64,000 nucleotides of DNA from the NCBI GenBank assembly GCA_964654855.1, contig CAZZJS010000002.1, forward strand, positions 15,285 through 79,284, given 5' to 3'. The notes beneath the pieces are model-generated. The model ran no database searches. It was given only the letters and a program-made list of their open reading frames with translations, and was not told the DNA's origin. The stretch comes from an uncultured Rickettsiales bacterium. Its GTDB lineage: Bacteria; Pseudomonadota; Alphaproteobacteria; Rickettsiales; JALZUV01. Below are positions 2,859-25,085 of the stretch, one piece after another. The stretch's first letter is position 1. Each line of letters opens with the position of its first letter. The position numbers and the translations under genes were made by a program.

Positions 2859-2931
2859 GCACATAACTCACTGTATTATAATTCTTTTTATATTTGGAAT
2901 TCAAAAAACTTTCCCAATCTGAATAAAAACC

Positions 2932-2946
2932 TTCCGAAATTGGGAG
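2932..2946. promoter_or_regulatory. Candidate activator-binding palindrome between two divergent sigma54 promoters
   Basis: TTCCG-AAATT-GGGAG; half-site TTCCCAATCT at 2911. Confidence 0.5.
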
Positions 2947-3068
2947 CTTTTGGGACTTCTCATCCAAGCTTGTTCAAAGCACCTTCCGATAGAACAAAAC
3001 ACTTAAGCTAATGTTTTATATAACCATATGGACAACACTCCACGCCTAAAAAATCGATAAGTTCGAGC

Positions 3069-3084
3069 TGGTACGGTTACTGCT
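3069..3084 (+). promoter_or_regulatory. sigma54 -24/-12 promoter for the REC-exosortase-GT operon
   Basis: TGGTAC-GGTTA-CTGCT (GG-N10-GC), 31 bp upstream of ATG 3116. Confidence 0.6.
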
Positions 3085-3115
3085 TAGCTATAGAGACATA
3101 CATAAAGGATAGATT

Positions 3116-3535
3116 ATGGAACTATATGCAAGAACAGATACCTCCTCCCATTCAGGATTAAAAATACTGATCGCAGAAGATGACATGACACATTTCATGC
3201 ACCTCTCCTCACTATTGCGAAAACGTGGGTATTACGTAAAAGTCGTAAATAATGGAAAGGATGCTTTGCACATGCTGCAAACAGAACCTTTTCATGCATT
3301 TTTTCTAGATTTGATGTTGCCTAAAGTCGATGGATTCGAAGTCATTGAAAAGTTACAAGAAACTCCTGAGTTACAAAAAACTCCTGTAATCATTACCTCA
3401 GCGCATATCATGCGTAACTTTATGCACCGGTTCCCTCAAGACAGTGTGAAAGGCTTTTTACCAAAACCTATCGATCCTTCTGTGCTAGATGGAGCATTGA
3501 GAAAAGTAGAGGGTCATGCACCTATCTCATCATAA
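3116..3535 (+). CDS. Single-domain response regulator (REC)
   Basis: KILIAEDD...FFLDLMLPKVDG...ITSA...LPKP. Confidence 0.9.
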   Translation: MELYARTDTSSHSGLKILIAEDDMTHFMHLSSLLRKRGYYVKVVNNGKDALHMLQTEPFHAFFLDLMLPKVDGFEVIEKLQETPELQKTPVIITSAHIMRNFMHRFPQDSVKGFLPKPIDPSVLDGALRKVEGHAPISS

Positions 3536-4367
3536 ACTGCTCGCATGGATCGCATTGATTGGCTGCTTAAATGGGCTTAGTCGATCTATACTCGTTTCAA
3601 TATCAGAGCATGGTATAGTCAATGCGGTTATATCTGGGTTCCATCTCAATTTATTTGTCGTGATTGCCATTATCGCTGCATTGCGCCTGATAATAGGCGC
3701 AAAAGATAGCCACCCCCTCACGCTTACCGATAAGCATATAATCTCATTATTTTTCATTATATTAATGATTCCCAGCGCTATGACTAGCTGGTCTACTCTG
3801 GCTTGTTTCTCACTTTGGTGTATCTGGAAATATCGTCATAACCCGCGGGTATGTGCTGGCTTTTCTATCCTATTGGCCGTTGGAATACGTGAGCCAGTAG
3901 TGATGATATTGTTAAAAAGTCTGGCACCCGTGGTGCTAACTTTAGATGCAGTATTCGCACAAACATTTGCTGACTTTATGGGATTGTCTTCTCAACGCCA
4001 TGATAACCTAATTACTACAGAGCAAGGTCGATCAATTCTTATTCTCGCAGGGTGTTCTTCAGTCAGCAACCTTTCCCTAATTTGGTTAGGGTGGCTGGTC
4101 GTAGCACGCAACCTATCTTATCAATGGCAAAAACGTGATGCACTCGCACTTACAACACTCACCCTGATGGTACTAATACTTAACTGGCTTCGCCTAGCAG
4201 TGCTAACTCTCTCTCAAGAAGCGTATCACTGGCTCCATGGTGAGACCGGCCTCATAGTATATCAAACCATATTACTCATTCTGATGTTTCTAATTATTCG
4301 GAGGATCTATGCAAAAGAGATTATGGATTATTATCATCCTGCTCGCCAGCATCACGCTGTGGGGTAA
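3516..4367 (+). CDS. Exosortase/archaeosortase-family membrane transpeptidase
   Basis: About 8 hydrophobic segments with Cys (ILAGCSSVSNL), Arg (LNWLRLAVL) and His (YHWLHGETG) in the exosortase order. Confidence 0.75.
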   Translation: MHLSHHKLLAWIALIGCLNGLSRSILVSISEHGIVNAVISGFHLNLFVVIAIIAALRLIIGAKDSHPLTLTDKHIISLFFIILMIPSAMTSWSTLACFSLWCIWKYRHNPRVCAGFSILLAVGIREPVVMILLKSLAPVVLTLDAVFAQTFADFMGLSSQRHDNLITTEQGRSILILAGCSSVSNLSLIWLGWLVVARNLSYQWQKRDALALTTLTLMVLILNWLRLAVLTLSQEAYHWLHGETGLIVYQTILLILMFLIIRRIYAKEIMDYYHPARQHHAVG

Positions 4368-4791
4368 GGTCATGCGTTATCATACGCCTCTTCACAACAT
4401 AGAAGAGCATGTAAACATACAGTTAGAAAACACCATGAAAGAGCAAGGTTTCGAGCTTCTGGCACACCAAACCCTCACTTCAAGCGGTGTATTCTCTGCC
4501 TATCATTACACACACCAAAACTGTATTGGAGAGCTTACGATTACTCCTCTTTTCAAAAGCGCAGAAGCCGTCAGCATGGTTCAAAAGGACAGCCAAAAAC
4601 CAGTTTTCTATTATCGCCATTATCAAGGCGAAGCATTTCCGAACTGGTATTATCTCTGGCGCGAAGGAATTGCCCCATTACGACGCATGGCAGAGCTAGA
4701 AACCATTACCTTTCCCGCTGTTCTAGCGATATATGATCCATCAAATTGCGTGCAAGATGCATCCCTTTCGTTTGAGGAGTTCTGGCAATGA
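4309..4791 (+). CDS. Exosortase-adjacent protein with one N-terminal TM/signal segment (EpsI-like position)
   Basis: Hydrophobic LWIIIILLASITLWG followed by a soluble domain; overlaps exosortase 3' end; ATGA overlap with next gene. Confidence 0.55.
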   Translation: MQKRLWIIIILLASITLWGKVMRYHTPLHNIEEHVNIQLENTMKEQGFELLAHQTLTSSGVFSAYHYTHQNCIGELTITPLFKSAEAVSMVQKDSQKPVFYYRHYQGEAFPNWYYLWREGIAPLRRMAELETITFPAVLAIYDPSNCVQDASLSFEEFWQ

Positions 4792-5828
4792 GTCATTTCC
4801 TAAATAAAAAACAAGAAATTTGGCTAACAGTCGATTCCCGTCACTTTGGTGGAATTGAAACACATCTTTACCAACTAGCCACTGGATTGGTCAAAACAGG
4901 CTATCACCCACGTATTGTCTTCTTACGCGATTACGGCAAACACCCTTTAAGAAAGGCATTGCAAAAAGCCGAAATTCCCATCACTACTCTCACCCACCCT
5001 TTACGAGGATGGAAAGAAGCAATCTCACATTATAAACCTGCTTTGATTCATACACATGGTTATAAAGCAGGAATATTAGGCCGCCTCGCCGCTTATCGAA
5101 ATAATATTGCCTGTGTGTCTACCTATCATAGCGGAGATGCCAATAATGGTCGCTTAAAATGCTATCGCTGGTTCGATGAGCACACCGCTTCGCTCGCACA
5201 AAAGGTGATTGCCATAAGCGAGAATGTGGCTGCACGACTCCCCTCTCATGCGGCTATTATCCCTAACTTTGTGCCTGTTCCTTCAGATATCACTGAGCAT
5301 ACCGGTAAGCACATTGCCTTTGTTGGTCGACTTTCACACGAAAAAGGGCCTGACTATTTTGTAGAACTCGCAAAATCACTCCCCCAACACCTCTTTACCG
5401 TATATGGCGATGGCCCCATGCGCGAAACATTAGATGTTGTAGAAAATTTGAATTTTATTGGACAAGTCGATTCAATGGAACCTCACTGGCAAAAGATTGA
5501 TTTGCTTATTATGCCTTCTCGCCGCGAAGGTTTACCACTCGCAGCCTTAGAATCCATGGCACATAGAATCCCCGTAATCGCAAGCGCCGTAGGTGGTCTC
5601 CCCTCTCTTATACAAGATAAAGAAAACGGATTTTTGGTAGAAACCGGTAACCTCGCAGAATTGAGTAAGATTGCCTCTCATTGGTACCAGTTAGATGAGG
5701 TCACTCGCCAAACCATATGCCAAAAAGCGCAACAAACAGTTCGCGAGCAATACTCACCAGAAGTCATTTTACCGCAAATTATTCAACAATATGAGGAAGC
5801 TTATGCGCATCGGCACCCTACTCGGTAG
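4788..5828 (+). CDS. GT4 glycosyltransferase (SypH-like)
   Basis: GGIETH, HTHGYKA, FVGRLSHEKG, PSRREGLPLAALESMA. Confidence 0.9.
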   Translation: MSHFLNKKQEIWLTVDSRHFGGIETHLYQLATGLVKTGYHPRIVFLRDYGKHPLRKALQKAEIPITTLTHPLRGWKEAISHYKPALIHTHGYKAGILGRLAAYRNNIACVSTYHSGDANNGRLKCYRWFDEHTASLAQKVIAISENVAARLPSHAAIIPNFVPVPSDITEHTGKHIAFVGRLSHEKGPDYFVELAKSLPQHLFTVYGDGPMRETLDVVENLNFIGQVDSMEPHWQKIDLLIMPSRREGLPLAALESMAHRIPVIASAVGGLPSLIQDKENGFLVETGNLAELSKIASHWYQLDEVTRQTICQKAQQTVREQYSPEVILPQIIQQYEEAYAHRHPTR

Positions 5829-6963
5829 TTTCCCTGTTTTATCTGAAAGTTTTATTCGTAATGAAATTCATGCATTGCGTAAAACCGGCCTACCCGTTGA
5901 TATCGTTGCGATGGTTAAGGAGGAGAGCACACAGCTTTCCAAACAAGAACAGGAATTGGTAAAGACTGCCACCTATTTGCAAGATCTACCACCCCCATCG
6001 TGGAGTAAGGTATTAAAATTCCTACCCAATATCCTATCAATCATCCCATTTTTGTGGGCACAGAAAGAATTATCACCAGCATCCTTGCTTTATCACGGTA
6101 TCAGAATAGCCCTTAAAGGCTATGAGCTAGGATGGACACATATCCATACGCATTTTGCTTGGGGGCATGCTTCTTACGCGATTGTAGCCGCAAAGTTATT
6201 AAACATTCCCGTTACCTTAACGTGCCATGGATCGGATGTGTATGCCACACCACAAGACTTGCAGGCCAAGTTAGATCATAGTGATTCGATCATTGCCGTA
6301 TGCGATGAAATGCGAGAAACTCTTGCCGCACAAACGCACACTCCTATACAGATAATTGCTTGCGGAGTGGATACAGACGAATTTACTCCACTAAAAACGA
6401 AGAAATCGAATGGTCGATTATTATTCGTCGGACGCTTAATCGATTGCAAAGGCGTGGACGATTTACTGCATGCAATGACTGCATTACCCACCAAACACCG
6501 ATTACCTCTAGATATTATCGGTGATGGCCCTTTGCGCGCTGAACTTGAACAACTCAGCAAAGAATTAGAATTAGACGAGTCAGTTTCTTTCTTAGGCGCA
6601 AAACCAGCCAACTGGTTGAAAAAGAATGGCCCGCATTATCATGCATTTGTCTCTGCATTTCGAGAAGGAGAAGACGGTGCTAAGGATACTGGTCCCATCG
6701 TAATCAAGGAAGCAATGGCAATGGGTTTGCCCATTATAAGCACTGAATTTATGGGAATTCCAGAGATGGTTGACCCCACTTGTGGCACCCTTATTCCTCC
6801 TAAAAATCGCGAAGCATTGCAGCAAGCTCTCTTCCAGCTTTGGGAAAAACCAGAGAGCAAACGACTCAGAATGGGAGAAAATGGCCGAAAGAAGTTAATC
6901 GATAATTTCTCGATTAACAAGCAAATACACGATCTTAGGTCGTTATGGAGTGATCTGGCATAA
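5803..6963 (+). CDS. GT4 glycosyltransferase (SypI/J-like)
   Basis: FPVLSESFIRNEI, HIHTHF, FVGRLIDCKG, DTGPIVIKEAMAMG; start chosen at the ATG after a GAGG SD. Confidence 0.9.
   Translation: MRIGTLLGSFPVLSESFIRNEIHALRKTGLPVDIVAMVKEESTQLSKQEQELVKTATYLQDLPPPSWSKVLKFLPNILSIIPFLWAQKELSPASLLYHGIRIALKGYELGWTHIHTHFAWGHASYAIVAAKLLNIPVTLTCHGSDVYATPQDLQAKLDHSDSIIAVCDEMRETLAAQTHTPIQIIACGVDTDEFTPLKTKKSNGRLLFVGRLIDCKGVDDLLHAMTALPTKHRLPLDIIGDGPLRAELEQLSKELELDESVSFLGAKPANWLKKNGPHYHAFVSAFREGEDGAKDTGPIVIKEAMAMGLPIISTEFMGIPEMVDPTCGTLIPPKNREALQQALFQLWEKPESKRLRMGENGRKKLIDNFSINKQIHDLRSLWSDLA
6832..6846. promoter_or_regulatory. Candidate activator-binding palindrome
   Basis: TTCCA-GCTTT-GGGAA, about 110 bp upstream of the sigma54 site at 6956. 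Confidence 0.45.
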
Positions 6964-6971
6964 GTCATGCT
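6956..6971 (+). promoter_or_regulatory. sigma54 -24/-12 promoter for flippase-ligase-DUF1194
   Basis: TGGCAT-AAGTC-ATGCT (GG-N10-GC) spanning the GT stop codon, 47 bp before ATG 7019. Confidence 0.6.
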
Positions 6972-8323: not shown

Positions 8324-9746
8324 TACGGCCAGCATCGCAATGAATGCACACACACCCGCTTCTCCTGCTATACTAACTGGATTGATGTGGCTGTGGTGTC
8401 TTGTGGGTATGGGAGTGCTCTATACCACAAGGGAGCCTCTCTTTTTACTGGTAATGATGATTCTACCACTCAGTGCCATCATGGGACTAAAACTCCCTTT
8501 CTTACTAGCAATGGGCTTTGTGCTATTCTCTTTCTTCCGAATACATGAAGCGTTCCCCTTTTTGATGCCGCTTCATATTCCCAAGCTCCTTTCCTTAGGA
8601 GCAATCGCAAGCTTTAGTTTGCTGTTATTACAGAAGCGTATCAAACTATTCTGGACTACTGAACTCACCTGCTTCGCCCTCTTTTTCTTCTATTGTAGCA
8701 TCAGTATTCTTTTAGCCGAAAACCGTGGATTGGCCTTTGCTTATTGGAGTGGCATTTACGCAAAAATTGCACTCATGGTATTCATCATTACCTACCTTAC
8801 GCGAACGCCACGCCAACTTCGCTGGATTAGCCGACTCATTGTGCTGACAGGTATGACAATTGCTATCGTTGCCATCAAAAACAAATTGCAAGGTATTGGA
8901 CTAGTCGAAGGCACACGCGTAACCATCAGCCGTGATTTAGGTAGCATCTTAGGCGATCCTAATGATCTAGCACTCACTCTACTCTTCCCATTCAGCTTTG
9001 CTATTACCATGGCCATGCGCTGGGGAGTACGGTGGGTAGACCGCTTCGTCGGCATTTTGGGAACAGGCATCATCTTGCTCGCCATTATTTATACGCAGAG
9101 CCGAGGCGGACTGCTTGGGATTGCTACCGTTATATTCACCCTAACCTGGTTTAGAGTACGTTCAAAAACCTTACTTATCGCCGGTGCTTTTTGCGCTGTT
9201 CTAGTATTATTTACATTAGCCGGTATTGCGGATCGCGCATCTGGCGGAACCCATGAAGAAGGACTAGATGAATCCGCCAGTATTCGTTTACATGCATGGA
9301 TGGCAGCTTTCAAAATGGCACTCTATAACCCGTTGACCGGTGTTGGGCTCGACAACTTTTATGCAAATTTCTTTTTCTATTCCGATTTCTGGGACAATAA
9401 AAACCACGCCGTACACTCCACTTGGTTTGGCGTAATGGCCGAAACAGGTTTTGTAGGATTCGGTTTATTTATCGCAATGATTTGGCAGTTATTGCGTACT
9501 GCTCGTAAATTGCATACGGCAACCTTGCATGCTGTACGAGCCGATGGAAAAGCCATTAGCCTTTCCATCACTTCTGAAGCGTTATTGGCAGGTATTCTTT
9601 CGTTCATTGTTTCTGGAACGTTCCTTACTCAGGGCTTTACCTGGCCAATATACATTCTGCTCGCACTAACCGTTGCGACCGTTCATATCCATCAGCAAAC
9701 GCTGAAAGATTCACACAGAAACCAATTAAACAGGAGATTATTATGA
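8310..9746 (+). CDS. O-antigen ligase/Wzy-type polymerase (SypL-like)
   Basis: LGDPNDLA, YTQSRGGLLG, SASIRLHAW, PLTGVGLDNF, HAVHSTW. Confidence 0.9.
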   Translation: MSFPNTASIAMNAHTPASPAILTGLMWLWCLVGMGVLYTTREPLFLLVMMILPLSAIMGLKLPFLLAMGFVLFSFFRIHEAFPFLMPLHIPKLLSLGAIASFSLLLLQKRIKLFWTTELTCFALFFFYCSISILLAENRGLAFAYWSGIYAKIALMVFIITYLTRTPRQLRWISRLIVLTGMTIAIVAIKNKLQGIGLVEGTRVTISRDLGSILGDPNDLALTLLFPFSFAITMAMRWGVRWVDRFVGILGTGIILLAIIYTQSRGGLLGIATVIFTLTWFRVRSKTLLIAGAFCAVLVLFTLAGIADRASGGTHEEGLDESASIRLHAWMAAFKMALYNPLTGVGLDNFYANFFFYSDFWDNKNHAVHSTWFGVMAETGFVGFGLFIAMIWQLLRTARKLHTATLHAVRADGKAISLSITSEALLAGILSFIVSGTFLTQGFTWPIYILLALTVATVHIHQQTLKDSHRNQLNRRLL

Positions 9747-10627
9747 TTTGTTTTTTCAAAAAACTGGTTGTTCCTGCCTTCATGGCAAGCACAACCTTAT
9801 TATACAGCACGCAAGCTTCGGCTCAGGATGTTGATGTAGAGCTTCAGCTTTTAATCGATGTATCTGGCAGTGTTAGCACCAGTGAGTATAATCTGATGAT
9901 GGATGGCTACGCTAACGCCTTCCGTAACGATTCAGTTCAGGACATTATCCTGAATAATTCTGGCGAAAATTTCGGAAGTATTGCTGTCCAAACGGTGATG
10001 TGGTCTAGCCAAAACCTACAGAGTACCATGACCGATTGGACCCTTCTCAATAGTATCGACAGTATTAATAATTACGCCTCTACCCTAGGCAGTATGGATC
10101 GTGCTTTTGGCGGCGCCACTTATCTGGCAGAAGGTCTTGATTACGGTGCCAATCTATTTTCGGATAATGGCTTTAACGGTACACGTAGCGTGATCGACAT
10201 TTCCGGCGACGGATATGGTTATGATTATCTGTATAAAGATTATTCTTTCTTCACAGGCGGAGATACTGCAACCCAGCGTGATGACGTGCTGGCCTCTGGT
10301 ATCACTACCATTAATGGGATTACGTTGGAAGGCACCTATGCTCAGTCTGGCGACCAAACCCTCACAGAATGGTATTCAACTAATGTAACAGGTGGTGATA
10401 ATGCTTTTGTCATCGCTGCAAATGGATTTGGTGACTTCGAGCGTGCTTTGGTCACCAAATTAAGCGCCGAGATTGAAGGTGGCTACATTCCGATCGAAGC
10501 CACTCCGGCCAATCCGATTGATACCGCACCCGCTCCCATTCTGGGAACTGGTCTTCCCATTTTGTTGCTTCTGCTACTATATAATAAATTTTTATTTATA
10601 AAAAACAGACAGTTAAGTGTGGCATAG
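9743..10627 (+). CDS. Secreted DUF1194 (vWA-fold) protein with PEP-CTERM-like C-terminal sorting signal
   Basis: Signal peptide ending ASA-QD; DVELQLLIDVSGSVS; VIDISGDG; TINGI; C-terminus APAPILGTGLP-ILLLLLLY-NKFLFIKNR. Confidence 0.8.
   Translation: MICFFKKLVVPAFMASTTLLYSTQASAQDVDVELQLLIDVSGSVSTSEYNLMMDGYANAFRNDSVQDIILNNSGENFGSIAVQTVMWSSQNLQSTMTDWTLLNSIDSINNYASTLGSMDRAFGGATYLAEGLDYGANLFSDNGFNGTRSVIDISGDGYGYDYLYKDYSFFTGGDTATQRDDVLASGITTINGITLEGTYAQSGDQTLTEWYSTNVTGGDNAFVIAANGFGDFERALVTKLSAEIEGGYIPIEATPANPIDTAPAPILGTGLPILLLLLLYNKFLFIKNRQLSVA
10533..10547. promoter_or_regulatory. Candidate activator-binding palindrome inside the sorting-signal codons
   Basis: CTCCC-ATTCT-GGGAA about 73 bp upstream of the sigma54 site at 10620; half-site TTCCCATTTT 21 bp further on. 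Confidence 0.45.
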
Positions 10628-10635
10628 GGATTGCT
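10620..10635 (+). promoter_or_regulatory. sigma54 -24/-12 promoter for the acetyltransferase (sypM-like) operon
   Basis: TGGCAT-AGGGA-TTGCT, near-consensus. Confidence 0.75.
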
Positions 10636-11430: not shown

Positions 11431-12544
11431 TATTATTGTTTTCGGCGAAGATTACGGCGTACACCCGAGTTCTACTCAGCATTTAATGAATCGCTTAGCA
11501 GCAAATCATCGCATTATCTGGTTGAACTCTATCGGTTTACGTGCACCAAAACTTACATTGAACGATATGATGCGAATTATTCGTAAAGCCACAACGATAT
11601 TAACCGCGCGTCTTGCTCGAACAGATTCCGCACAGAATCAAACTAAAGCTCCTTTTCCAGTCTTACAGCCTATTGCCTTACCTTTCCCAGACTCTTCATT
11701 GGCACGTAAGGTCAATCAATGGCTGCTTAAACGCCAAATGCAAAAACTCATCAAGCGTTACGACTTACAACACCCTACCTTATGGACATCCCTTCCCTCT
11801 GCTGTGGATGCGGTCTGCCCAGAAATGAAACGCACCCTCTATTACTGTGGTGATGACTTCTCAGCGCTGGATGGGGTTGACCATAAGGCTGTTGAAGCGA
11901 TGGAAACAGAGCTAATTGATCAAGCTGATTTAGTTATTTCAGCCAGCAAATCTCTCCATCAACGCATGCCGCAAGAAAAACGCCTATTTCTCCCACATGG
12001 CGTTGATATTACACTATTTACCCGTAGGTTAGCCTGCCCACCAGAACTACAAAAAACGCGTAAACGTGCTTGCTTTTATGGCTCCATTGCTTCTTGGGTC
12101 AAGCTAGATTGGATTGCGTATGCGGCGCGTATGTTACCTGAATGGGAATTCATTTTAATCGGCAATATTAAAGCAGATGTTTCATCACTAAAGACAGAAC
12201 AAAACATCATCTTTACTGGTGCAATGGCTCATGATGAATTGGTACGCTATGCCAACCATTGCGATGTCTTGCTTATGCCATTTGCAGATAATGGACAGAT
12301 TCGCCACTGCAATCCGCTCAAACTTTATGAGTATTTGGCCATCGGAAAGCCGATTGTCACCACACAATTTCCAGCGATTGAACCATATCAGTCATTGCTT
12401 CACATCGCCGATTCAGCTGAGAGCTTTGTCTCTTGTCTGCTGGAAGCAGAAAAAGAAGGCAATCGACGCCTTCGCCAACGACAACAATCCGTACGCTGGG
12501 AAGATTGGAACCAACGTGCACAACAACTGGAGGAATGGCTATGA
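11423..12544 (+). CDS. Glycosyltransferase family 1/4 (SypN-like)
   Basis: GEDYGVHPSSTQHL, YYCGDDF, CNPLKLYEYLAIGKPIV. Confidence 0.85.
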   Translation: MTDIIVFGEDYGVHPSSTQHLMNRLAANHRIIWLNSIGLRAPKLTLNDMMRIIRKATTILTARLARTDSAQNQTKAPFPVLQPIALPFPDSSLARKVNQWLLKRQMQKLIKRYDLQHPTLWTSLPSAVDAVCPEMKRTLYYCGDDFSALDGVDHKAVEAMETELIDQADLVISASKSLHQRMPQEKRLFLPHGVDITLFTRRLACPPELQKTRKRACFYGSIASWVKLDWIAYAARMLPEWEFILIGNIKADVSSLKTEQNIIFTGAMAHDELVRYANHCDVLLMPFADNGQIRHCNPLKLYEYLAIGKPIVTTQFPAIEPYQSLLHIADSAESFVSCLLEAEKEGNRRLRQRQQSVRWEDWNQRAQQLEEWL

Positions 12545-14495: not shown

Positions 14496-15577
14496 CCGTA
14501 CAAATTGTACAACATTTACGCCCAGGAGGAATTGAGATGTTGGCGTTAGAGTTCCTGCGCCATCAATCGGATAACTCATCTACACATCTTATTAGTTTAG
14601 AGGGAACAGCAGAAGAAACCTTTCAGCAATGGTCAAAACTGAAAGATTATGCAGATCAAATTACCTTCTTGAATAAACCACAAGGAATTCATATTCCTAC
14701 TTTATTCAAGCTTACAAAACTTTTCAGAGAATGGAATGCGAACAGCATCCATACCCACCACATTGGCCCGCTGCTTTACGCAGGCATGGCTGCCCGCCTC
14801 GCAGGCTGTCAGAACCTTATTCATACCGAACATGATAGTTGGCATTTGCAACAAGAATCTGAGCGTAAATTGCAAGGAACCCTACTACGTTTACTCAGAC
14901 CAAAACTAGTAGCAGATAGCCAACATGTTGCTCGGGAACTGGATCGATTTTATCCATTTTCACAAAGCGAAGTAATCTTAAATGGCATTGATACAACCCG
15001 CTTTATACCAGGAGACAAACTAAACGCACGCAAAGCTCTGGCATTACCCAAAAACGCCAAACTAATTGGCTGTGCTGCACGATTAGAAACCGTAAAAAAT
15101 CATAGCCTTATTTTTCAAGCTCTGCGAAAGTTACCTAAAGAATACCATCTAGCACTTGCGGGCTCGGGCTCTTTAGAAGAACCACTAAAACATCAAGCAA
15201 CTATACTCGACATTACTGAACGGGTTCATTTTCTAGGACATGTCGATGATATTGTCTCTTTCTATCAATCACTTGATGCTTTTTGCCTTCCCTCCTTGAA
15301 AGAAGGCTTACCACTATCACTTTTAGAGGCACAAGCGGTTGACGTTCCTGTAATAGCAAGCGATGTAGGAAGTTGCCGAGAGGCATTGGCGCCGCAAAAA
15401 AGCCAACTTTTTCCTTCTAATAACCTGCCCGCTCTTCTTGAATCGGTAGAAGGTATATTTAAAGCTGATGCTTCACCCCAAACACGCAGCTTTGTTCTTG
15501 AGCAATTCAGCCTAAATAAGATGATCGAAAGCTATCAATCTCTTTGCGTAACAACAATGAGAGGAATATCATCATGA
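14468..15577 (+). CDS. GT4 glycosyltransferase (SypP-like)
   Basis: VQHLRPGGIE, HTHHIGPLLYAG, HTEHD, NGID, PSLKEGLPLSLLEAQA. Confidence 0.9.
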   Translation: MDQKAPKPLTVQIVQHLRPGGIEMLALEFLRHQSDNSSTHLISLEGTAEETFQQWSKLKDYADQITFLNKPQGIHIPTLFKLTKLFREWNANSIHTHHIGPLLYAGMAARLAGCQNLIHTEHDSWHLQQESERKLQGTLLRLLRPKLVADSQHVARELDRFYPFSQSEVILNGIDTTRFIPGDKLNARKALALPKNAKLIGCAARLETVKNHSLIFQALRKLPKEYHLALAGSGSLEEPLKHQATILDITERVHFLGHVDDIVSFYQSLDAFCLPSLKEGLPLSLLEAQAVDVPVIASDVGSCREALAPQKSQLFPSNNLPALLESVEGIFKADASPQTRSFVLEQFSLNKMIESYQSLCVTTMRGISS

Positions 15578-16752
15578 TCGTACCCATAAGTTTAATCGCT
15601 GGAATAATTGCTGTTATATGCGCCTTGTTGATCGTTTATCACCACGCGATCTGGCCTGTATTTTTGATGCTTCTAGCACGTATAAAGGCAGATGAAACAC
15701 AGCAACCAACGCCCAAGATCATTCCATCTGAGCTTCCCTCAATTTGCGTCATTATTCCCGTATATAATGAGGTTAAATTTATCGCTGATAAGCTATGGAA
15801 TTGCGCTATGCTGGATTATCCGCCCGAAAAACTAAGAATCCGGCTGATTTTTGATGGATGCACCGACCAAACAACCGTAATTGCACGTGAAACACTGAAA
15901 AATCCTATTTTTCGTCATTTACCAATATTTTTAGAGATCGAACAAGAAAACCACGGAAAACAGGCTATTCTTACCCAAGCTATTGAATCTTCTAATGAAG
16001 AAATTATCGTGCTTTCTGATTGTTCTTCTATGCTTTCTATGGATAGCCTAAAGCGTATTATCACTAGATTTAGGGATGAAACATTAGGCGTCGTATGCGC
16101 TAGCTACGAGCTTTTATACTCTGGATCAGCAGGCGAACAACAATATTGGAAATACCAGAAGAAAATTAAGACTGCTGAGAGCAAGTTAGGAAGTGTTTTA
16201 GGCGCTCACGGCGCTTGTTACGCATTTCGTCGTACATTATACCACCCATTACCCGCTAATACGATCAATGATGACTTTGTGCTACCTATGCAGATCGTCA
16301 AACAAGGCTATCGAGCCATTTATGATCAAGAAATCATCGCATTAGAGTTAGAAAAAGCCGACGAAGAGTTTGATTTCCATCGCCGTATTCGCATTGGAGC
16401 CGGAAATATGCAGCAATGCCAATTACTTATGGAAATGATACATCCACGTTATGGCATGACAGCACTTTCTTTTTTCTCTGGCAAAGTATTACGCACAGCG
16501 ATGCCTTATGTGATGCTTAGTGCGTTTATATTGAGCGGAGTCGCCTCACTAGAAATAAATGAATTCTTGCTACTCTTTGTTCCTCAACTCTTTGTTTATG
16601 CACTAGTTATAGTGAGTATTAAGCTCAATATCACTCAAGGAAAGCTAGCAAGCTTACGTTATCTAGTGTTAGGGCACCTTGCCGGCTTAATAGGCTCTTT
16701 ACGCTATTTTTTCACCCCTAAACAACTTAAATGGCAGGAGATTTCCTCATGA
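15574..16752 (+). CDS. GT2 glycosyltransferase (SypQ-like)
   Basis: IIPVYNE, DGCTD, LSDCS, GAHGACYAFR, INDDF, RRIRIGAGNMQQ. Confidence 0.9.
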   Translation: MIVPISLIAGIIAVICALLIVYHHAIWPVFLMLLARIKADETQQPTPKIIPSELPSICVIIPVYNEVKFIADKLWNCAMLDYPPEKLRIRLIFDGCTDQTTVIARETLKNPIFRHLPIFLEIEQENHGKQAILTQAIESSNEEIIVLSDCSSMLSMDSLKRIITRFRDETLGVVCASYELLYSGSAGEQQYWKYQKKIKTAESKLGSVLGAHGACYAFRRTLYHPLPANTINDDFVLPMQIVKQGYRAIYDQEIIALELEKADEEFDFHRRIRIGAGNMQQCQLLMEMIHPRYGMTALSFFSGKVLRTAMPYVMLSAFILSGVASLEINEFLLLFVPQLFVYALVIVSIKLNITQGKLASLRYLVLGHLAGLIGSLRYFFTPKQLKWQEISS

Positions 16753-17393
16753 CCACCTCTAACGATCCTTATCTTTCTTTTTCAACAACTTGCATTAAGC
16801 GCACTTTAGATATTACATGCTCTCTCATTGGCGGATTAATACTTCTTCCCCTCCTCCCTCTTATTGCTCTAGCCGTTAAATTAGATTCCCCAGGGCCCAT
16901 ATTTTTTAAGCAATTACGCATTGGTGAGCAATATCACAATCACACACGACTATTCATGATGGTGAAATTTCGTACGATGATCGTAGATGCAGAGGAGTCC
17001 GGAGCCAAATGGGCTTCCCAAAATGATCCTCGTATTACCAAAGTGGGAAATTTTCTACGTAAAACACGCCTGGATGAGTTACCTCAATTACTCAATGTAC
17101 TAAAAGGTGATATGTCTTTAGTTGGCCCTCGCCCAGAGCGCCCAGGCTTCTATCATACGCTTGAAAATGCCATCCCACTTTATGCTGATCGCACCTATGG
17201 TTTAAAACCGGGCATAACCGGATTTGCTCAGGTTTTACAAGGGTATGACGAGACAATCGAAGATGTAAGAAGCAAAGTTGGATACGACCATGCCTATGCA
17301 TTAATGTTACAAAATGCATGGACAGCTCTTTGCGCTGATATCAAAATTTTATGGATGACAATTAGCGTCGTTATCCATGGTCGGGGACAGTAA
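16749..17393 (+). CDS. Polyprenyl-phosphate sugar transferase (SypR-like priming glycosyltransferase)
   Basis: KRTLDI, DSPGPIFFKQLRIG, KFRTM, DPRITKVGNFLRKTRLDELPQL, SLVGPRPERP. Confidence 0.93.
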   Translation: MTTSNDPYLSFSTTCIKRTLDITCSLIGGLILLPLLPLIALAVKLDSPGPIFFKQLRIGEQYHNHTRLFMMVKFRTMIVDAEESGAKWASQNDPRITKVGNFLRKTRLDELPQLLNVLKGDMSLVGPRPERPGFYHTLENAIPLYADRTYGLKPGITGFAQVLQGYDETIEDVRSKVGYDHAYALMLQNAWTALCADIKILWMTISVVIHGRGQ

Positions 17394-17402
17394 AATGTAA
17401 AC

Positions 17403-17418
17403 TGGCACACCCGTTGCT
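17403..17418 (+). promoter_or_regulatory. sigma54 -24/-12 promoter for the STAS (sypA-like) operon
   Basis: TGGCAC-ACCCG-TTGCT, full consensus, 42 bp upstream of ATG 17461. Confidence 0.85.
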
Positions 17419-17460
17419 CCTATTCAGATACGTTAAGACGAATTAATAAAGGAGCAAATC

Positions 17461-17784
17461 ATGCCACATAGTATCGAACAACAAGACCAACAAACGGTTC
17501 TTACCCTTTCCGGCAGTTTAGACTCAGAAGAAACTCTCACTCTTAAACCCATTATAGACCAGTTTATCGAAACTGAATCTACCCACCTAACCGTAGAGAT
17601 GACAGAAGTCCATTTTCTGGATTCTTCTGGCATCGGCATACTGGTCTATGCCTTCAAACGTTTACGCAGTGACGAACGAGAAATCACCTTACGTAATGTG
17701 CAAGGACAACCTTCAGACCTAATGCGTATGCTTCGTATCGATAAAGCGATTACAATGGAAAGCTCTACAGGAGAAGCAGCATGA
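17461..17784 (+). CDS. STAS-domain anti-sigma-factor antagonist (SypA-like)
   Basis: VHFLDSSGIG phospho-serine motif, 107 aa. Confidence 0.9.
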   Translation: MPHSIEQQDQQTVLTLSGSLDSEETLTLKPIIDQFIETESTHLTVEMTEVHFLDSSGIGILVYAFKRLRSDEREITLRNVQGQPSDLMRMLRIDKAITMESSTGEAA

Positions 17785-20440: not shown

Positions 20441-20441
20441 A

Positions 20442-21197: not shown

Positions 21198-22207
21198 TTA
21201 CCTCATTACGTACAACATTTTCTTATTTCGTAAGGCAAATTATGCATCTAACAAAAATGACTTTTTGGGGATTATTACTTATTAACGCCAGTTTATGCGT
21301 TATCTCCATTTTTGGTGATTTATTCTGGATCTCTGATGTATTGCATAATTTTGCTTTACACCTATTAGCCGGTTTTATTGTACTTTCAGTGACAGGTTTA
21401 TTGATAAAACAGCGAAAACTAGCAGCCATGGCGCTACTATTTATGATTCTACAAACTCTTCATATATCCCCACAACTACCAGAACTTTTACCCTTTTCAT
21501 CTCAACAAAACTGTGTCGAATGTAGCGGTGAAGAAATTAGCATTTTTCAATACAACTTACTCTTTTCAAACCCCAATATTCCCAAACTAGTAGAAGTAAT
21601 GCTTTCAAGGTTAGAACACGATGTCCTCGTATTCCAAGAAGTAACTGGCGCACACCAAGAAACGCTCGCACCGCTTGAATTTGCCTACCCCTTTGTCTAT
21701 CAGCAAAAAGACATTCGAGTATTTAGTCGGCTTCCTCTCGAAAAAGTAAGTTATAGCAAACATAATGCGTTTCTGGAGCTGATTGGACAAACCTCGCGTG
21801 CTCAAACGCCGTTCCATCTATTTGCAATTCACAGTACAGCACCCATTAATGCCCAAGCATGGAAAAAACGTAACCAACTGCTTATTGGTGCTGCTAAACA
21901 AATTGCGAAAGCTCCTATGCAACATAAGATACTCGTCGGCGATATGAACATAACTTCATATTCAAAATGGTTTCAGAAACTCATTAACTTGTCTGGCCTG
22001 CAAAACAACCAGAACCAACCGTTAATGAAGCCTAGTTGGTCACCTTTGGATAATCAGCCAATCTGGGCAAGTTTGAGAATTGACCATTTACTTACCAGTC
22101 CCTCAGTACAGGTACTAGAGCAACATATCGGCAATGACTTTGGCTCTGACCATCTACCAATTATCACACGGCTACAATTAACTAATGACGGATTATCAAC
22201 GCGGTAA
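21149..22207 (+). CDS. Membrane-anchored endonuclease/exonuclease/phosphatase family protein
   Basis: N-terminal TMs; QYNLL, VFQEV, LVGDMN, IDHLL, GSDHLPI; true start may be ATG 21242. Confidence 0.85.
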   Translation: MDTVYHQTTAYRNNAVITSLRTTFSYFVRQIMHLTKMTFWGLLLINASLCVISIFGDLFWISDVLHNFALHLLAGFIVLSVTGLLIKQRKLAAMALLFMILQTLHISPQLPELLPFSSQQNCVECSGEEISIFQYNLLFSNPNIPKLVEVMLSRLEHDVLVFQEVTGAHQETLAPLEFAYPFVYQQKDIRVFSRLPLEKVSYSKHNAFLELIGQTSRAQTPFHLFAIHSTAPINAQAWKKRNQLLIGAAKQIAKAPMQHKILVGDMNITSYSKWFQKLINLSGLQNNQNQPLMKPSWSPLDNQPIWASLRIDHLLTSPSVQVLEQHIGNDFGSDHLPIITRLQLTNDGLSTR

Positions 22208-23714
22208 CATCATCATATAGCACTTCACCAAAGTGCTGCGTATATCCGCTCCATAAATTGTCAGTCGATAATGAAGAGGTAGAGTTCTTTAACCATTTAT
22301 CAAATTGCTGCTGGGCTTGTGGGTCTCGGTTACCTTCCGTTAAACCATCGCTATACAATAAAACAGCCTGATTCTTAGATAATGTTAGCGAGTAAGACTC
22401 ATAAACTGTTCCCGCAAGCAACCCTGGCAACGCCCCCTCTATTGGCATCAGCTTTGCTCCCCCTTTGTCTAATAATATCGGAGGAGGATGCCCAGCACTG
22501 GCGATGGAAATAACCTCTTTGCGCAAAGAAACAATCTGACATGTAATGAAATTACCCGCCAGATACGGGTCAGCATCAATCATATCACTTAACCGTGCCA
22601 TCAGCACTTCTGGTGGTTCAACCGAGTCCATATGCTTGAGCAAACCATACAGATATCCCCCATATAAATGAGCGAAATACTTAGCTTTCGTGCCATGCCC
22701 CGTCACATCCGCGAGAAGAAGCAATTCATCCTGCGAACGTTTAAAATGCAGCACCATATCGCCGCCACCTGCACTGGCTTCCTTAAAGAGAAGTTCCGCT
22801 TCATACCCAGCAACATTAGAAGGGCAATGTGGAATCATCCTATCCGTTGCCTCAGCATCCAACTTTTCACCAATAGAATGAGTCAATTGCTGATTGCGTT
22901 GTAAAACGCGATGTACCGTATTGAGCAACTTCTCCTTCTCGATCGGCTTAGGCAAATAATCATCAACCCCCAAATCATAAGCTTGCTGTTCAATTGTGCT
23001 ATTCTCATTCGCAGTTAGAAAAACAAAGGGAATTGCTCGCAGAGCCGTATCTTGTTCTATTTGTTGACGCAGGGTAATACCATCCACATCTGGCAAACCA
23101 ATATCGCAAAGCACTAGATCAATCGATTGTGATTGCAAGATACCTTTAGCTTCTTGAGCATTGTAAGCCAGTAGAACATTATATTCTTCACCAAACATTT
23201 TGCGAATAAGCAAAGCCATAGGCTGCACATCTTCTACCACCAAGATCGTAGAAACAGAAGTTGAGCCAAATTCAGCAGCCAAGTTTTCTAGCGTGAAAGA
23301 CAAGATATTTTTCTCATCTTTGCGCTCATATTTCACCTTCGGAAAATGCTCACGTAGTAAATATAACCCCATACCTCCCGTATCGAGCTTTTCAACATCT
23401 AGCGTATCAGATAGTTGCTTTAGTTTTTGTTCAAATTCAGAGAAATAAGATCCATCATCTACGACACTAAAGGCCAGCATTCCCTGCGCTTCATCATGTT
23501 CTGCACGAATCAAAATATTATCTGCAACGTGTGAAGCATGCTCTACCAGATTCGTTATCCATTCTGAAAGCACTAACTGTACCGTCTGAATATCTTTATC
23601 AGTTAAATACTCGTTTAAGGCTTCTGCCAAATCATCCCGCAAAGGTCTGATTGCCGAAATCTCTGGGCGACATTCCTGATTAAAAATAGGAGTCATAATA
23701 GATAAAGTTTGCAT
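22182..23714 (-). CDS. RsbW-like kinase + REC + PP2C (SpoIIE) phosphatase (SypE-like)
   Basis: SEWITNLVEHA..VVDDG..GGMGLYL; ILVVED..DLVLCDIGLP..KP; GGDMV..LADVTGHG..YSDGLTE..DDVT. Confidence 0.88.
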   Translation of the reverse strand: MQTLSIMTPIFNQECRPEISAIRPLRDDLAEALNEYLTDKDIQTVQLVLSEWITNLVEHASHVADNILIRAEHDEAQGMLAFSVVDDGSYFSEFEQKLKQLSDTLDVEKLDTGGMGLYLLREHFPKVKYERKDEKNILSFTLENLAAEFGSTSVSTILVVEDVQPMALLIRKMFGEEYNVLLAYNAQEAKGILQSQSIDLVLCDIGLPDVDGITLRQQIEQDTALRAIPFVFLTANENSTIEQQAYDLGVDDYLPKPIEKEKLLNTVHRVLQRNQQLTHSIGEKLDAEATDRMIPHCPSNVAGYEAELLFKEASAGGGDMVLHFKRSQDELLLLADVTGHGTKAKYFAHLYGGYLYGLLKHMDSVEPPEVLMARLSDMIDADPYLAGNFITCQIVSLRKEVISIASAGHPPPILLDKGGAKLMPIEGALPGLLAGTVYESYSLTLSKNQAVLLYSDGLTEGNRDPQAQQQFDKWLKNSTSSLSTDNLWSGYTQHFGEVLYDDVTALIIRH

Positions 23715-23757
23715 TTTCTCTCAATCATCGCTGCTATGATGCTATGGTTAGTTATCT

Positions 23758-25035
23758 ATGAAAAGAATTCTACTCATTTCCTACTATTTCCCTCCGCAGA
23801 CGAGTGTTGGAACCTTTCGTTTAAAGCGCTTTGTTGATCATATGAAACAATGTGGTTTGGATGTTACCATCCTGACCGTCAAAAATCCCGATAAACAATT
23901 TCATCCTTATTCAGGAGAAATGCCTCAAGAAGATAAATACCTAGGTGCCCCCGTTCATAGGGTGGCAGAATGGCCTGTGCGCTGGGTATGGCAATGGCCA
24001 ACACGTGCAGCAAAATTTTTGAGTAAATTGCTACCCATGCCCTTTCAAGAGCATTCCTTTGCCTCTCGTTTTTGGCATATCGATATGGAGTGGGGATGGA
24101 TTCAACCCGCTTATCGCAAAGCACGAGAATTGCTTAAAGCAGAACCGTTAGATGCAATCGTGATTAGTTGTCCGCCCTTTAGCTCTGCACATATTGGCGC
24201 TAAATTAAAAAAGCATCATAATATCCCACTCATATTAGATTTTCGTGATGGCTGGGTTGCTTCCTCTCCTTACCTACATCAAGTGGCGAAAAAAGATGGG
24301 CCGATAGAACAAAAACTACTCACTCAAACGGATCACTTAATCGTGACCTCCAAAAGCGATCAAGAATGTTATCAAGCACTCTTGGGTAAAGATAAGGTAT
24401 CGTTAATCTATAATGGTTATGACACTCCTTTTATTCTCTCTCAAAACGAAACCCCTGAAACAGCTCCCAAGGATGATACATTAAAACTCCTATATCTCGG
24501 CGCATGGGGAGTATTTGGACGTTCGCCAGAAAGGTTATTAAGGGCTCTAAAAGCAGCAAATATCCCTTGGCACCTAACCTCTATCGGCAGCACCAATGAA
24601 ATAGTAGAAAAATCTGCCCAGAAATTAGGGGTAATGGGTTCTATCAAATTAATAAGCAATCAACCTAAAGAAGCTTTGATACCGTGGATTGCAGAATCAG
24701 ACGCCCTATTTGTTATTAAAGGAGCACCTCCGCAAGGTGGCCGCGATACGCATATTGCGGCCAAAATATACGATTATCTCGCAACAGGAAAAGCAGTGCT
24801 AGGGCAATTACCCGAAGGCGATAGTAAAGACATGCTAGAAGAATACTGCCACCAGCCATTTATTGCACCACCCGAGGATCATGAGCAGCTTATTCAGCAA
24901 ATCCAAGCAATGCACAAAGCAAAGATCGAAAATAGGTTGGTGCTCAAACCCAATGATAAATTCTTGAAAGAATTTAGCGGCGAAGAACTTACACGCAAAT
25001 TTGTAGAAACTATTCTCAAAACAAACACAATATAA
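23758..25035 (+). CDS. GT4 glycosyltransferase
   Basis: SYYFPP, VISCPPFSS, DFRDGW, YNGYD, AKIYDYLATGKAVL. Confidence 0.85.
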   Translation: MKRILLISYYFPPQTSVGTFRLKRFVDHMKQCGLDVTILTVKNPDKQFHPYSGEMPQEDKYLGAPVHRVAEWPVRWVWQWPTRAAKFLSKLLPMPFQEHSFASRFWHIDMEWGWIQPAYRKARELLKAEPLDAIVISCPPFSSAHIGAKLKKHHNIPLILDFRDGWVASSPYLHQVAKKDGPIEQKLLTQTDHLIVTSKSDQECYQALLGKDKVSLIYNGYDTPFILSQNETPETAPKDDTLKLLYLGAWGVFGRSPERLLRALKAANIPWHLTSIGSTNEIVEKSAQKLGVMGSIKLISNQPKEALIPWIAESDALFVIKGAPPQGGRDTHIAAKIYDYLATGKAVLGQLPEGDSKDMLEEYCHQPFIAPPEDHEQLIQQIQAMHKAKIENRLVLKPNDKFLKEFSGEELTRKFVETILKTNTI

Positions 25036-25041
25036 CCCCCA

Positions 25042-25085
25042 TTCCCATTTGGAGAGCCAAAGAGGTAAACTTCCCTAAATGGGAA
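25042..25085. promoter_or_regulatory. Tandem candidate activator-binding palindromes
   Basis: TTCCC-ATTTG-GAGAG (25042) and TTCCC-TAAAT-GGGAA (25071) upstream of the sigma54 site. Confidence 0.55.

Follow-up and report, generated by a model that had tools for sequence, protein, structure and literature searches.

Genes and sigma-54 promoters of the locus

The window, by which we mean the whole 64,000-nucleotide stretch of DNA analyzed here, derives from the 1.92 Mb genome of an uncultured alga-associated alphaproteobacterium, whose DNA is publicly present solely in the DNA runs of an alga metagenome. It bears a biofilm-polysaccharide locus that spans 29 kb and extends leftward past the window edge. 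By its Pfam architectures this locus is of the syp type: it codes for a STAS protein (SypA) with a kinase/REC/PP2C partner (SypE), a Wza-like protein (SypC), and a run of genes in the sypK-to-sypR order, which we take to be that of Vibrio fischeri. The structural proteins are 27-63% identical to their counterparts in Vibrio, Kiloniella, and Nisaea loci, with partial synteny. The locus also holds an exosortase-like gene, a hit to the XrtA-type chain-length determinants, a DUF1194 protein with a sorting-signal-like tail, and three paralogous proteins combining an unknown N-terminal domain with a receiver (window 390-1331, C2:10975-11823, and C2:11852-12715).

At the left edge of the window lies the end of a regulatory gene:

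1-459, + strand: 3' end of the activator gene (AAA lid and HTH_8; Pfam AAA_lid_14, HTH_8)

The full gene (C2:14307-15743) starts 977 bp to the left of the window and encodes a 478-aa NtrC-type response regulator with REC, Sigma54_activat, AAA_lid_14, and HTH_8 domains. The AAA+ module is intact, with Walker A (GESGVGKE), sigma-54 contact loop (GSFTGA), and Walker B (LFLDEVGE) motifs, and is followed by the C-terminal HTH, which is the sole recognizable DNA-binding domain among the proteins of the locus. The genome also encodes rpoN (C3:141533-142015). Using at most two mismatches to TGGCAC-N5-TTGCW directly ahead of a gene start as the promoter criterion, we found six sigma-54-like sites in the window, each 20-60 bp ahead of a gene start, and three more directly to its left, among them the activator's own. 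All nine have the -24/-12 (GG-N10-GC) form and are kept in a congener, G002, whose activator is 79% identical. The six in the window are:

2843-2858, - strand: sigma-54 promoter TGGCATTGCCTTTGCT of the UDP-glucose dehydrogenase (ugd)/response-regulator operon; kept in G002
3069-3084, + strand: sigma-54 promoter TGGTACGGTTACTGCT of the operon headed by a 139-aa receiver protein (RR139), with the exosortase-like gene; TGGTAT-N5-CTGCT kept in G002
6956-6971, + strand: sigma-54 promoter TGGCATAAGTCATGCT of the flippase/Wzy-like/DUF1194 operon; TGGCACAGCTTGTGCG at the equivalent position in G002
10620-10635, + strand: sigma-54 promoter TGGCATAGGGATTGCT of the acetyltransferase-to-sugar-transferase (sypM-to-sypR-like) operon
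17403-17418, + strand: sigma-54 promoter TGGCACACCCGTTGCT of the STAS/Wza-like operon; perfect consensus
25137-25152, + strand: sigma-54 promoter TGGCACCCTGCTTGCT ahead of the gene for a PAS hybrid histidine kinase (25189-27093)

A paired dyad upstream of the sigma-54 promoters

An earlier note on this DNA had described a dyad, TTCCCA-N3-TGGGAA, recurring 50-125 bp ahead of five of the six sigma-54 sites in the window, and quoted five 15-mers. All five occur exactly where placed (2932, 6832, 10533, 25042, and 25071), the distances are correct, and the pattern extends to eight of the nine promoters, with site centers 60-152 bp from the -24 GG. Second sites at 6863 and 10554 had been missed, and the one at 2911 was just implied through a start coordinate. 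The copies in the window are as follows (listed without strand; distances are from the dyad center to the -24 GG):

2911-2925: dyad TTCCCAATCTGAATA, 61 bp from the ugd-promoter GG and 152 bp from the RR139-promoter GG
2932-2946: dyad TTCCGAAATTGGGAG; common to the divergent pair, with GG distances of 82 bp (ugd) and 131 bp (RR139)
6832-6846: dyad TTCCAGCTTTGGGAA, 118 bp from the flippase-promoter GG; within the end of a glycosyltransferase gene
6863-6877: weaker dyad, read on the reverse strand as CTCCCATTCTGAGTC, 87 bp from the flippase-promoter GG; weight-matrix score 13.8
10533-10547: dyad CTCCCATTCTGGGAA, 81 bp from the acetyltransferase-promoter GG
10554-10568: dyad TTCCCATTTTGTTGC, of which the left half alone is strong; 60 bp from the acetyltransferase-promoter GG
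17035-17049: near-perfect copy TTACCAAAGTGGGAA; the STAS promoter lies 354 bp downstream
25042-25056: dyad TTCCCATTTGGAGAG, 89 bp from the hybrid-kinase-promoter GG
25071-25085: dyad TTCCCTAAATGGGAA, 60 bp from the hybrid-kinase-promoter GG

The DNA separating the Hpt gene from the activator operon contains the best two copies, TTCCCATATTGGGAT and TTCCCATATTGGGGC, with a sigma-54 site on either side of them. Several dyads have one good half only; position 4 is C in all nine tabulated sites and position 12 is G in six of them, while in three sites added later position 4 is T in two, one of which (CTCTCATTATGAGAC) is of the Vibrio type.

The sites have dyad symmetry and occur in multiple phased copies. 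Their centers fall 60-62 and 80-82 bp from the -24 GG at the RR operon, Hpt, HK-like/activator operon, ugd, and acetyltransferase promoters; the hybrid kinase has them at 60 and 89 bp, the flippase at 87 and 118 bp, and RR139 at 131 and 152 bp. The two members of a pair are 20-21 bp apart at six promoters (shared pairs counted) and 29-31 bp apart at two, and the short spacer between dyads and promoter is 69-86% A+T at the six paired promoters. The STAS promoter, which has the best sigma-54 consensus of the locus, lacks a dyad within 250 bp, in agreement with the earlier failure to find a convincing copy there. The copy at 17035 is a possible remote site for it: it has the sixth-best matrix score in the genome and is identical at 15 of 15 positions in G002. 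It also encodes the conserved ITKVGN motif of a sugar transferase, and 12% of that gene's 15-nt windows are equally conserved (P = 0.055).

Recurrence beyond chance and conservation

The enrichment over background that the earlier note called for is evident: in an unbiased count over the 1,063 bp that precede the sigma-54 sites, TTCCCA/TGGGAA is the top of 2,080 hexamers, seen 8 times against 0.49 expected (P = 5.6e-8). Allowing at most two mismatches, the genome contains 65 copies of the dyad, nine of them inside the 29-kb locus, where about one is expected; at up to three mismatches the 36 copies seen in the whole window against 26.3 expected are not significant alone. At the nine promoters 6 to 8 dyads with at most two mismatches have their centers 58-64 or 79-84 bp ahead of the -24 GG against 0.004 expected, the range reflecting how sites common to divergent promoters are counted. 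A weight matrix built from nine locus sites finds 60 genome positions scoring at least 13.4 bits, 11 of them in the locus, a count with some circularity, as locus sites were used to train the matrix. A sigma-54-like site follows 30-250 bp downstream of 10 of these 11 matches, versus 2 of the 49 elsewhere.

Conservation in orthologous loci, likewise proposed as a check, is seen in G002, the one congener with the locus and hence a single evolutionary lineage of comparative support: sites and distances are kept at all eight shared promoters. The 2911 dyad reads TTCCCAATaTGAATA there and sits within a 44-bp block identical at 40 positions amid diverged noncoding DNA; those at 6832 and 6863 read TTCCAGaTTTGGGAt and AATGGGAGAAAA, 119 and 88 bp from the GG; the 10533 dyad is identical, and its partner at 10554 reads TTCCCATTTTGcTtA, 60 bp from the GG. 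These observations bear on the view that the recurrence is non-functional, a product of chance, coding constraint, or residual likeness among duplicated promoter modules. The copies at 6832, 6863, 10533, and 17035 do lie in coding sequence, and one at 12134 is unconserved and looks like chance. However, the enrichment and positional statistics oppose chance, noncoding footprints are kept amid diverged flanks, likeness between modules is confined to the dyads and the -24/-12 boxes, and the 10533 pair, though coding in the source genome (G000), is conserved in G002, where it is noncoding. We therefore regard this view as very improbable.

Across 41 related genomes, the tandem sites and the activator orthologue occur together in two only, G000 and G002. 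A loosened tandem pattern gives three locus hits in G000, two in G002, and six scattered across the other 39, in which the activator orthologue was not found. A more distant relative has a syp-like locus and an activator that is 57% identical with an identical recognition helix; its two intergenic regions have neither a recognizable sigma-54 promoter nor a TTCCCA-N3-TGGGAA dyad.

The predicted enhancer and its activator

Taken together, these features suggest that TTCCCA-N3-TGGGAA is the enhancer (upstream activating sequence) of a sigma-54 regulon confined to the syp-like locus, a reading to which we assign a probability of roughly 0.75. What the analysis shows is the sequence of the dyads, their position, enrichment, and conservation; from these, the activator encoded in the cluster is the protein most likely to dock there, with binding, phosphorylation, and activation all inferred. 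The activator at 1-459, already named as the binder by the earlier note, is the most economical candidate because it has the sole recognizable DNA-binding domain of the locus, the best two copies precede its own operon, and motif and activator co-occur in just two of the 41 genomes.

The dyads could instead be genuine sigma-54 enhancers bound by another bEBP, encoded at C2:218371, C5:139620, or C5:179418. Besides the presence of these three further bEBP-like genes, HTH_8 recognition helices differ little within the family, and V. fischeri SypG and LuxO have common sites at qrr1 (PMC10162802). Yet the dyads are confined to the activator-encoding locus, the activator's own promoter carries the best pair, G000 and G002 alone combine the motif with the activator orthologue, and a sister bEBP of the same genus goes with a different palindrome, AGTTTCA-TAT-TGAAACT; another bEBP as the binder is hence unlikely.

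A further alternative makes the dyad an operator through which a non-bEBP regulator, a repressor or one of the three receiver paralogues with unknown N-terminal domains, modulates the promoters. Tandem TTCCCA-N3-TGGGAA pairs are indeed widespread in metagenomes in unrelated contexts, and some overlap sigma-70-like TTGACA boxes. In the locus, though, centers 60 and 81 bp upstream of the -24 element are enhancer positions rather than promoter-overlapping operator positions, the experimentally defined SypG enhancer of Vibrio loci has the same layout, and the other locus proteins lack a detectable DNA-binding domain, all of which makes an operator quite unlikely.

Under the enhancer reading with the cluster's own activator, a hybrid-kinase/Hpt phosphorelay encoded alongside would phosphorylate the NtrC-type activator (REC, AAA+, HTH_8), which would then bind the dyads as dimers centered about 60 and 81 bp ahead of the -24 GG, the 20-21 bp spacing placing them on the same helix face at most promoters. 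The bound dimers would build the active oligomer, which would reach the sigma-54 holoenzyme over the AT-rich spacer and, at as many as eight promoters, remodel the closed complex. The two dyad pairs between divergent promoters probably serve both directions. As the activator operon, the Hpt gene, and the hybrid kinase gene belong to the proposed regulon, the circuit would entail positive feedback.

Origin of the activator and implications

The best NCBIfam matches of the activator are NtrC, PEP_resp_reg, and LuxO, all under their cut-offs. It is 36-38% identical to SypG from four Vibrio, one Kiloniella, and one Nisaea syp loci; in a tree these six form one clade (support 100), and the activator falls in another (support 98-100) with alphaproteobacterial bEBPs that are about 50% identical to it. 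Orthology with SypG is rejected by this identity and by the placement outside the SypG clade. The earlier description of the dyad as a variant of the syp enhancer accordingly stands as a statement on form and layout rather than on proven common descent. We tentatively suggest that a syp-type locus may have kept its enhancer grammar (CA-N3-TG, pairs at ~60/80 bp) while an alphaproteobacterial bEBP of another lineage replaced its activator.

The half-sites differ by lineage, mainly at the inner bases: Vibrio and Kiloniella have TTCTCA, Nisaea has TTGCAA/CTCGCA, the present locus has TTCCCA, and the sister bEBP of the same genus goes with GTTTCA. Should these differences follow the recognition helix, the result would be a natural series of near-orthogonal activator/enhancer pairs from which the DNA-recognition code of HTH_8 bEBPs could be mapped. 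The half-site variants could also clarify how LuxO/SypG-type activators read DNA and supply insulated sigma-54 switches. The understanding of sigma-54 activation itself is unchanged. More immediately, the analysis furnishes a predicted regulon map, with nine sigma-54 promoters, enhancer sites, and a feedback loop, for an uncultured 1.9 Mb alga-associated alphaproteobacterium, and suggests that the promoter grammar of the squid symbiont Vibrio fischeri reaches well past Vibrionaceae, even with a non-orthologous activator.

Comparison with known systems

A well-established system is the NtrC enhancer of enteric glnAp2, where two dyads serve a phosphorylated REC-AAA+-HTH activator and nucleate its oligomer, which reaches the sigma-54 holoenzyme by DNA looping. 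The two-dyad arrangement recurs here, but the glnAp2 sites, at about -108 and -140, are further upstream and have another sequence (TGCACC-N5-GGTGCA), and the activator scores 400 bits on the NtrC model, under the cut-off of 558.6. PrsK/PrsR, the PEP-CTERM/exosortase-associated sigma-54 two-component system (TIGR02915), has its likeness here in the exosortase-like gene, the XrtA-type hit, and the DUF1194 protein of the locus; against the PrsR model the activator reaches 398.6 bits, under the cut-off of 502.6, and we know of no described PrsR binding site. The LuxO upstream activating sequence, TTGCAWWWTGCAA, of the qrr promoters of Vibrionaceae has the same HTH_8 bEBP family, CA-N3-TG core, and paired sites. 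It differs in its outer bases (TTGCA versus TTCCCA) and in its targets, small RNAs rather than polysaccharide operons, and the activator reaches 374 bits on the LuxO model against a cut-off of 800. A LuxO-like GTTGCAAATTGCAAT is also found in the syp-like locus of Nisaea.

The closest parallel is the SypG-bound syp enhancer (SE) at the sigma-54 promoters of the V. fischeri syp locus, with the consensus TTCTCANNNTGMDWN (Ray et al. 2013, as quoted in PMC10162802). The geometry and the T-to-C change given in the earlier note agree with this SypG site. The present dyad does not match that consensus strictly, since C replaces T at position 4 of the half-site, with the mirror G for A. The loci themselves are homologous and partly syntenic, sharing the STAS/SypE-type partner switch, the Wza-like exporter, and the flippase-to-sugar-transferase order. 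The sypA promoters of Vibrio fortis, V. orientalis, and two congeners have TTCTCA-N3-TGAGAA-type sites 79-80 and 56-60 bp from the -24 GG, so that paired centers at ~80 and 56-60 bp in Vibrio correspond to 80-82 and 60-62 bp here; the sites lie at enhancer distance upstream of syp-operon sigma-54 promoters, for which the Vibrio range is 56-91 bp. Differences lie in the wiring: four promoters in syp versus nine here, where the activator, Hpt, and kinase genes also fall inside the predicted regulon, and a STAS (sypA-like) promoter that is without a site here but carries the best pair in Vibrio. Both systems share the 6-N3-6 dyad with a CA-N3-TG core and have one half far better conserved than the other, and single sites overlap between them (CTCTCATTATGAGAC here, TTCCCATAATGAGAA in a Vibrio). 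Because Vibrio loci show TTCTCA-N3-TGAGAA in a like layout, the predicted enhancer is, by form and layout, a one-base-per-half variant of the syp enhancer within what otherwise appears to be a conventional switch.

Gene content of the locus

The dyad TTCCCA-N3-TGGGAA was followed up in a genome of 1.92 Mb (G000; 45% G+C, 99% complete, DNA from an alga metagenome, with no RNA runs found to contain it) that encodes RpoN and carries an exopolysaccharide locus resembling the Vibrio symbiosis polysaccharide (syp) locus. This locus spans window positions 1-27,100 and about 4.5 kb leftward (C2 denotes contig CAZZJS010000002.1, the window being C2:15285-79284).

Features of the syp-like locus and its regulatory genes
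Ends at window 459, starts 977 bp left of the window: activator, NtrC-type (REC, AAA+, HTH_8)
Window 390-1331, C2:10975-11823 and C2:11852-12715, all minus strand: paralogous receiver proteins
Within the locus: UDP-glucose dehydrogenase (ugd) and several glycosyltransferases
Within the locus: flippase and Wzy-like protein
Within the locus: DUF1194 protein
Within the locus: hexapeptide acetyltransferase
Within the locus: chain-length determinant and initiating sugar transferase
Within the locus: STAS protein and Wza-like exporter
Within the locus: SypE-like kinase/REC/PP2C protein
Within the locus: hybrid histidine kinases and Hpt protein

Each of the three receiver paralogues is about 280-310 aa long and combines an uncharacterised N-terminal domain with a C-terminal receiver domain, and all fall within the predicted regulon. 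Upstream of the locus, a truncated-globin gene immediately precedes that of a hybrid histidine kinase ending in an Hpt domain (C2:8861-10956). Next to the gene for a 62%-identical relative of the activator (L119:1958-3648) come a Bac_globin gene and then one of 443 aa for which no Pfam hits are recorded. These globin neighbours may provide a gas-sensing (O2/NO) input, an arrangement reminiscent of V. fischeri, where syp receives NO/HnoX-HahK input.

Enrichment of the dyad upstream of sigma-54 promoters

The five 15-mers quoted in the earlier note were all found where it had placed them, and six sigma-54-like boxes in the window each stand just ahead of a gene start. That note had also named enrichment over background as a check on the motif: stricter and unbiased counts show such enrichment, whereas counting loose matches to the consensus across the window does not (36 seen against 26.3 expected, not significant). 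Genome-wide there are 65 copies with at most two mismatches, nine of them in the 29-kb locus. When all 2,080 hexamers are ranked by enrichment in the 1,063 bp preceding the sigma-54 boxes, TTCCCA/TGGGAA comes first, with 8 occurrences against 0.49 expected (P = 5.6e-8). A weight matrix trained on nine locus sites, with the weakest of the nine as its threshold, matched 60 genomic positions, 11 of them inside the locus, a locus count that is partly circular. A sigma-54-like box lies 30-250 bp downstream of 10 of these 11 locus matches, as opposed to 2 of the 49 elsewhere.

A fixed layout of paired dyads

Three further sigma-54 modules, with two dyads each, lie immediately left of the window; their boxes precede the operon of the HK-like gene and the activator (C2:13470), the divergent Hpt gene (C2:13312-13327) and the receiver-protein operon (C2:12763-12778).

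Distances of dyad centres from the GG of the -24 box at nine sigma-54 promoters
RR operon: 62 and 81 bp
Hpt: 62 and 82 bp
HK-like/activator operon: 61 and 81 bp
ugd: 61 and 82 bp
Acetyltransferase: 60 and 81 bp
Hybrid kinase: 60 and 89 bp
Flippase: 87 and 118 bp
RR139/exosortase-like operon: 131 and 152 bp (pair in common with ugd)
STAS: no dyad within 250 bp

By chance, only 0.004 dyads with at most two mismatches would be expected to have their centres 58-64 or 79-84 bp from the -24 GG at the nine promoters. At the STAS promoter, for which the earlier note had seen no convincing copy, we likewise find none within 250 bp, though its sigma-54 box is perfect; a near-perfect copy 354 bp upstream (17035) sits inside a conserved coding motif and is ambiguous. 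At the six paired promoters, the DNA separating the proximal dyad from the -24 box has an A+T content of 69-86%, compared with 55% genome-wide. An IHF consensus is present upstream of just two of the nine promoters, so that AT-richness is the sole ground for the idea of IHF-assisted bending.

The region C2:12763-13485, 507 to 1,244 bp upstream of the activator gene start, forms a symmetric divergent control region. One near-perfect dyad pair lies midway between the outward-facing Hpt and HK-like/activator sigma-54 promoters, at 61-62 and 81-82 bp from each, and a third module precedes the next operon; the arrangement is kept in the congener G002.

Conservation in a congener

A syntenic locus occurs in only one of 41 related genomes, that of G002, a member of the same genus whose activator is 79% identical. 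Conservation in orthologous loci, another check named earlier, is borne out in this single congener with the locus: the dyads are kept, and their distances are unchanged at all eight shared promoters. The ugd/RR139 region is noncoding; there, one 44-bp block, which contains both dyads, matches at 40/44 positions and its flanks have diverged, and the other clearly conserved blocks are the -24/-12 boxes. A loosened tandem pattern gave three locus matches in G000, two in G002 and six in total across the other 39 genomes. For the coding-embedded copies at 6832, 6863 and 17035, synonymous-site tests do not separate dyad conservation from coding constraint; for the copy at 12134 the test was negative, and it is not conserved.

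The acetyltransferase module is conserved despite a 2-kb insertion in G002 between the DUF1194 and acetyltransferase genes (15550-17772 on the joined reverse complement of contigs L093/L094), which brings a small ORF and a glmS-like gene (MCGIVGVANG...). Its dyads lie in the last codons of the DUF1194 gene in G000 and, because of this insertion, are noncoding in G002. The insertion falls under this same enhancer and promoter module; PMC5801674 mentions glmS insertions in Vibrionaceae eps/syp clusters.

The G000 acetyltransferase dyads (window 10521-10627) double as codons for PILGTGLPIL, where the DUF1194 protein has a C-terminal tail resembling a sorting signal (APAPILGTGLPILLLLLLYNK...). The homologous tails of G002 and Kiloniella lack dyads (APVPIAGGGLAGLIMLLF..., APAPIAGSGLLSLLMLGF...), and in G002 the pair lies 350 bp downstream in noncoding sequence (L094, around C49:22064-22094), where one frame still reads TPILGKGLPILLIS. 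The enhancer overprint may be what makes the sorting signal atypical.

Searches beyond the genus

Activator homologues in eight related genomes (46-48% identical) lie outside syp-like loci and have no dyad; they serve as outgroups only, and one has a different palindrome. A collection-wide search of genome contigs with the activator returned only generic sigma-54 activator proteins (bEBPs) of at most 41% identity. The nearest outside relatives are the 62%-identical protein, whose contig is 3.6 kb long, and one of 57% identity in a rearranged syp-like locus of a Logan metagenome organism (L115/L120); the recognition helix of the latter is identical to the activator's, and SypE is divided between two genes in its locus. 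The intergenic regions of these two relatives contain no dyad upstream of a sigma-54 promoter, and the two of the L120 locus (8860-9219, 21406-21513) no recognisable sigma-54 promoter. Their only candidate dyad, ATCCTAGCATAGGAA, lies between the activator and Hpt genes in L120 and has both halves altered symmetrically relative to TTCCCA/TGGGAA.

A metagenome scan for the tandem pattern gave at least 120 heterogeneous matches, about as many as chance together with unrelated operators would produce, none linked to a syp-like locus. Perfect tandem pairs about 21 bp apart occur there in unrelated contexts (L152:12388-12418, L188:6089-6119, L184:10428-10456); on two contigs the pair comes straight after a TTGACA box, like a sigma-70 operator, and on one a REC-AAA+ bEBP gene, neighbour to a Por_Secre_tail protein gene, has a GTCCCA-N3-TGGGA pair immediately upstream. 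Since such pairs are common in unrelated settings, it is not the sequence alone that is diagnostic but its position relative to sigma-54 boxes.

The activator and a proposed mechanism

We infer that the activator binds the dyads and activates from them; the sequence, position, enrichment and conservation of the dyads are themselves observed. In the mechanism we propose, the neighbouring hybrid-kinase/Hpt relay would phosphorylate the activator, whose dimers would bind the paired dyads on one helix face and yield an active oligomer; this would open sigma-54 closed complexes across the short AT-rich spacer, and the activator would thereby increase its own expression and that of the Hpt protein and a kinase. 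A possible link with the Caulobacter ShkA-ShpA-TacA phosphorelay was considered and set aside; the paper on that phosphorelay gives no TacA binding site.

Another congener, G003, lacks the syp locus and encodes a paralogous bEBP, 46% identical (L109, G003:C314), beside a PAS hybrid kinase gene. AGTTTCA-TAT-TGAAACT (AGTTTCATATTGAAACT-type) palindromes flank this bEBP (L109 1416-1531 and 5985-6100), about 63-91 bp, judged by eye, before two sigma-54 boxes. The arrangement resembles a sister regulon whose half-site differs. A CA-N3-TG core with variable outer bases thus seems to be a general feature of this branch of the bEBP family.

Comparison with the syp enhancers

The comparison loci were retrieved through their Wza-like protein out of 400 sampled genomes of the phylum; exact protein matches identified two of the Vibrio genomes as Vibrio fortis and V. 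orientalis, and the two alphaproteobacterial ones as Kiloniella sp. and Nisaea nitritireducens. The enterobacterium Plesiomonas shigelloides has a syp-like locus on a 396-kb megaplasmid (NZ_CP027853.1, 308167-350191; L121), with a Wza-like protein 50% identical and the sugar transferase - STAS - Wza-like order of G000; the 42 kb examined contain no well-placed sigma-54 promoter, enhancer or sypG.

As quoted in PMC10162802, the published consensus of the site bound by SypG, the sigma-54 activator of syp, is TTCTCANNNTGMDWN (Ray et al., 2013). Vibrio sypA promoters carry TTCTCA-N3-TGAGAA-type pairs with centres 79-80 and 56-60 bp from the GG, and other Vibrio syp promoters single sites at 58-91 bp. 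In Kiloniella the site is GTCTCATTTTGTGAA, 79 bp away; Nisaea has CTCGCAATTTGCGGC 84 bp away and, before a different promoter, a LuxO-like GTTGCAAATTGCAAT 75 bp away. The G000 dyad has the same geometry, core and layout as the syp enhancer, the main difference being a single inner base in each half-site.

The activator shares 36-38% identity with SypG from the compared Vibrio, Kiloniella and Nisaea loci, and about 50% with many alphaproteobacterial bEBPs. In the tree these SypG proteins form one clade, and the G000/G002 activator and its 57-62% relatives fall inside another; the recognition helices are similar, not identical (IGKSTLYRRI in G000, LSPSTVYRKK in Vibrio). By identity and tree placement, then, the activator is not SypG. 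The description of the dyad as a variant of the syp enhancer thus holds for geometry, core and layout, with mainly one inner base changed per half, but implies no proven common ancestry. Overall, the G000 dyad is a conserved, locus-specific and genuine sigma-54 enhancer, conventional in kind: a syp-enhancer variant served by a non-orthologous activator.
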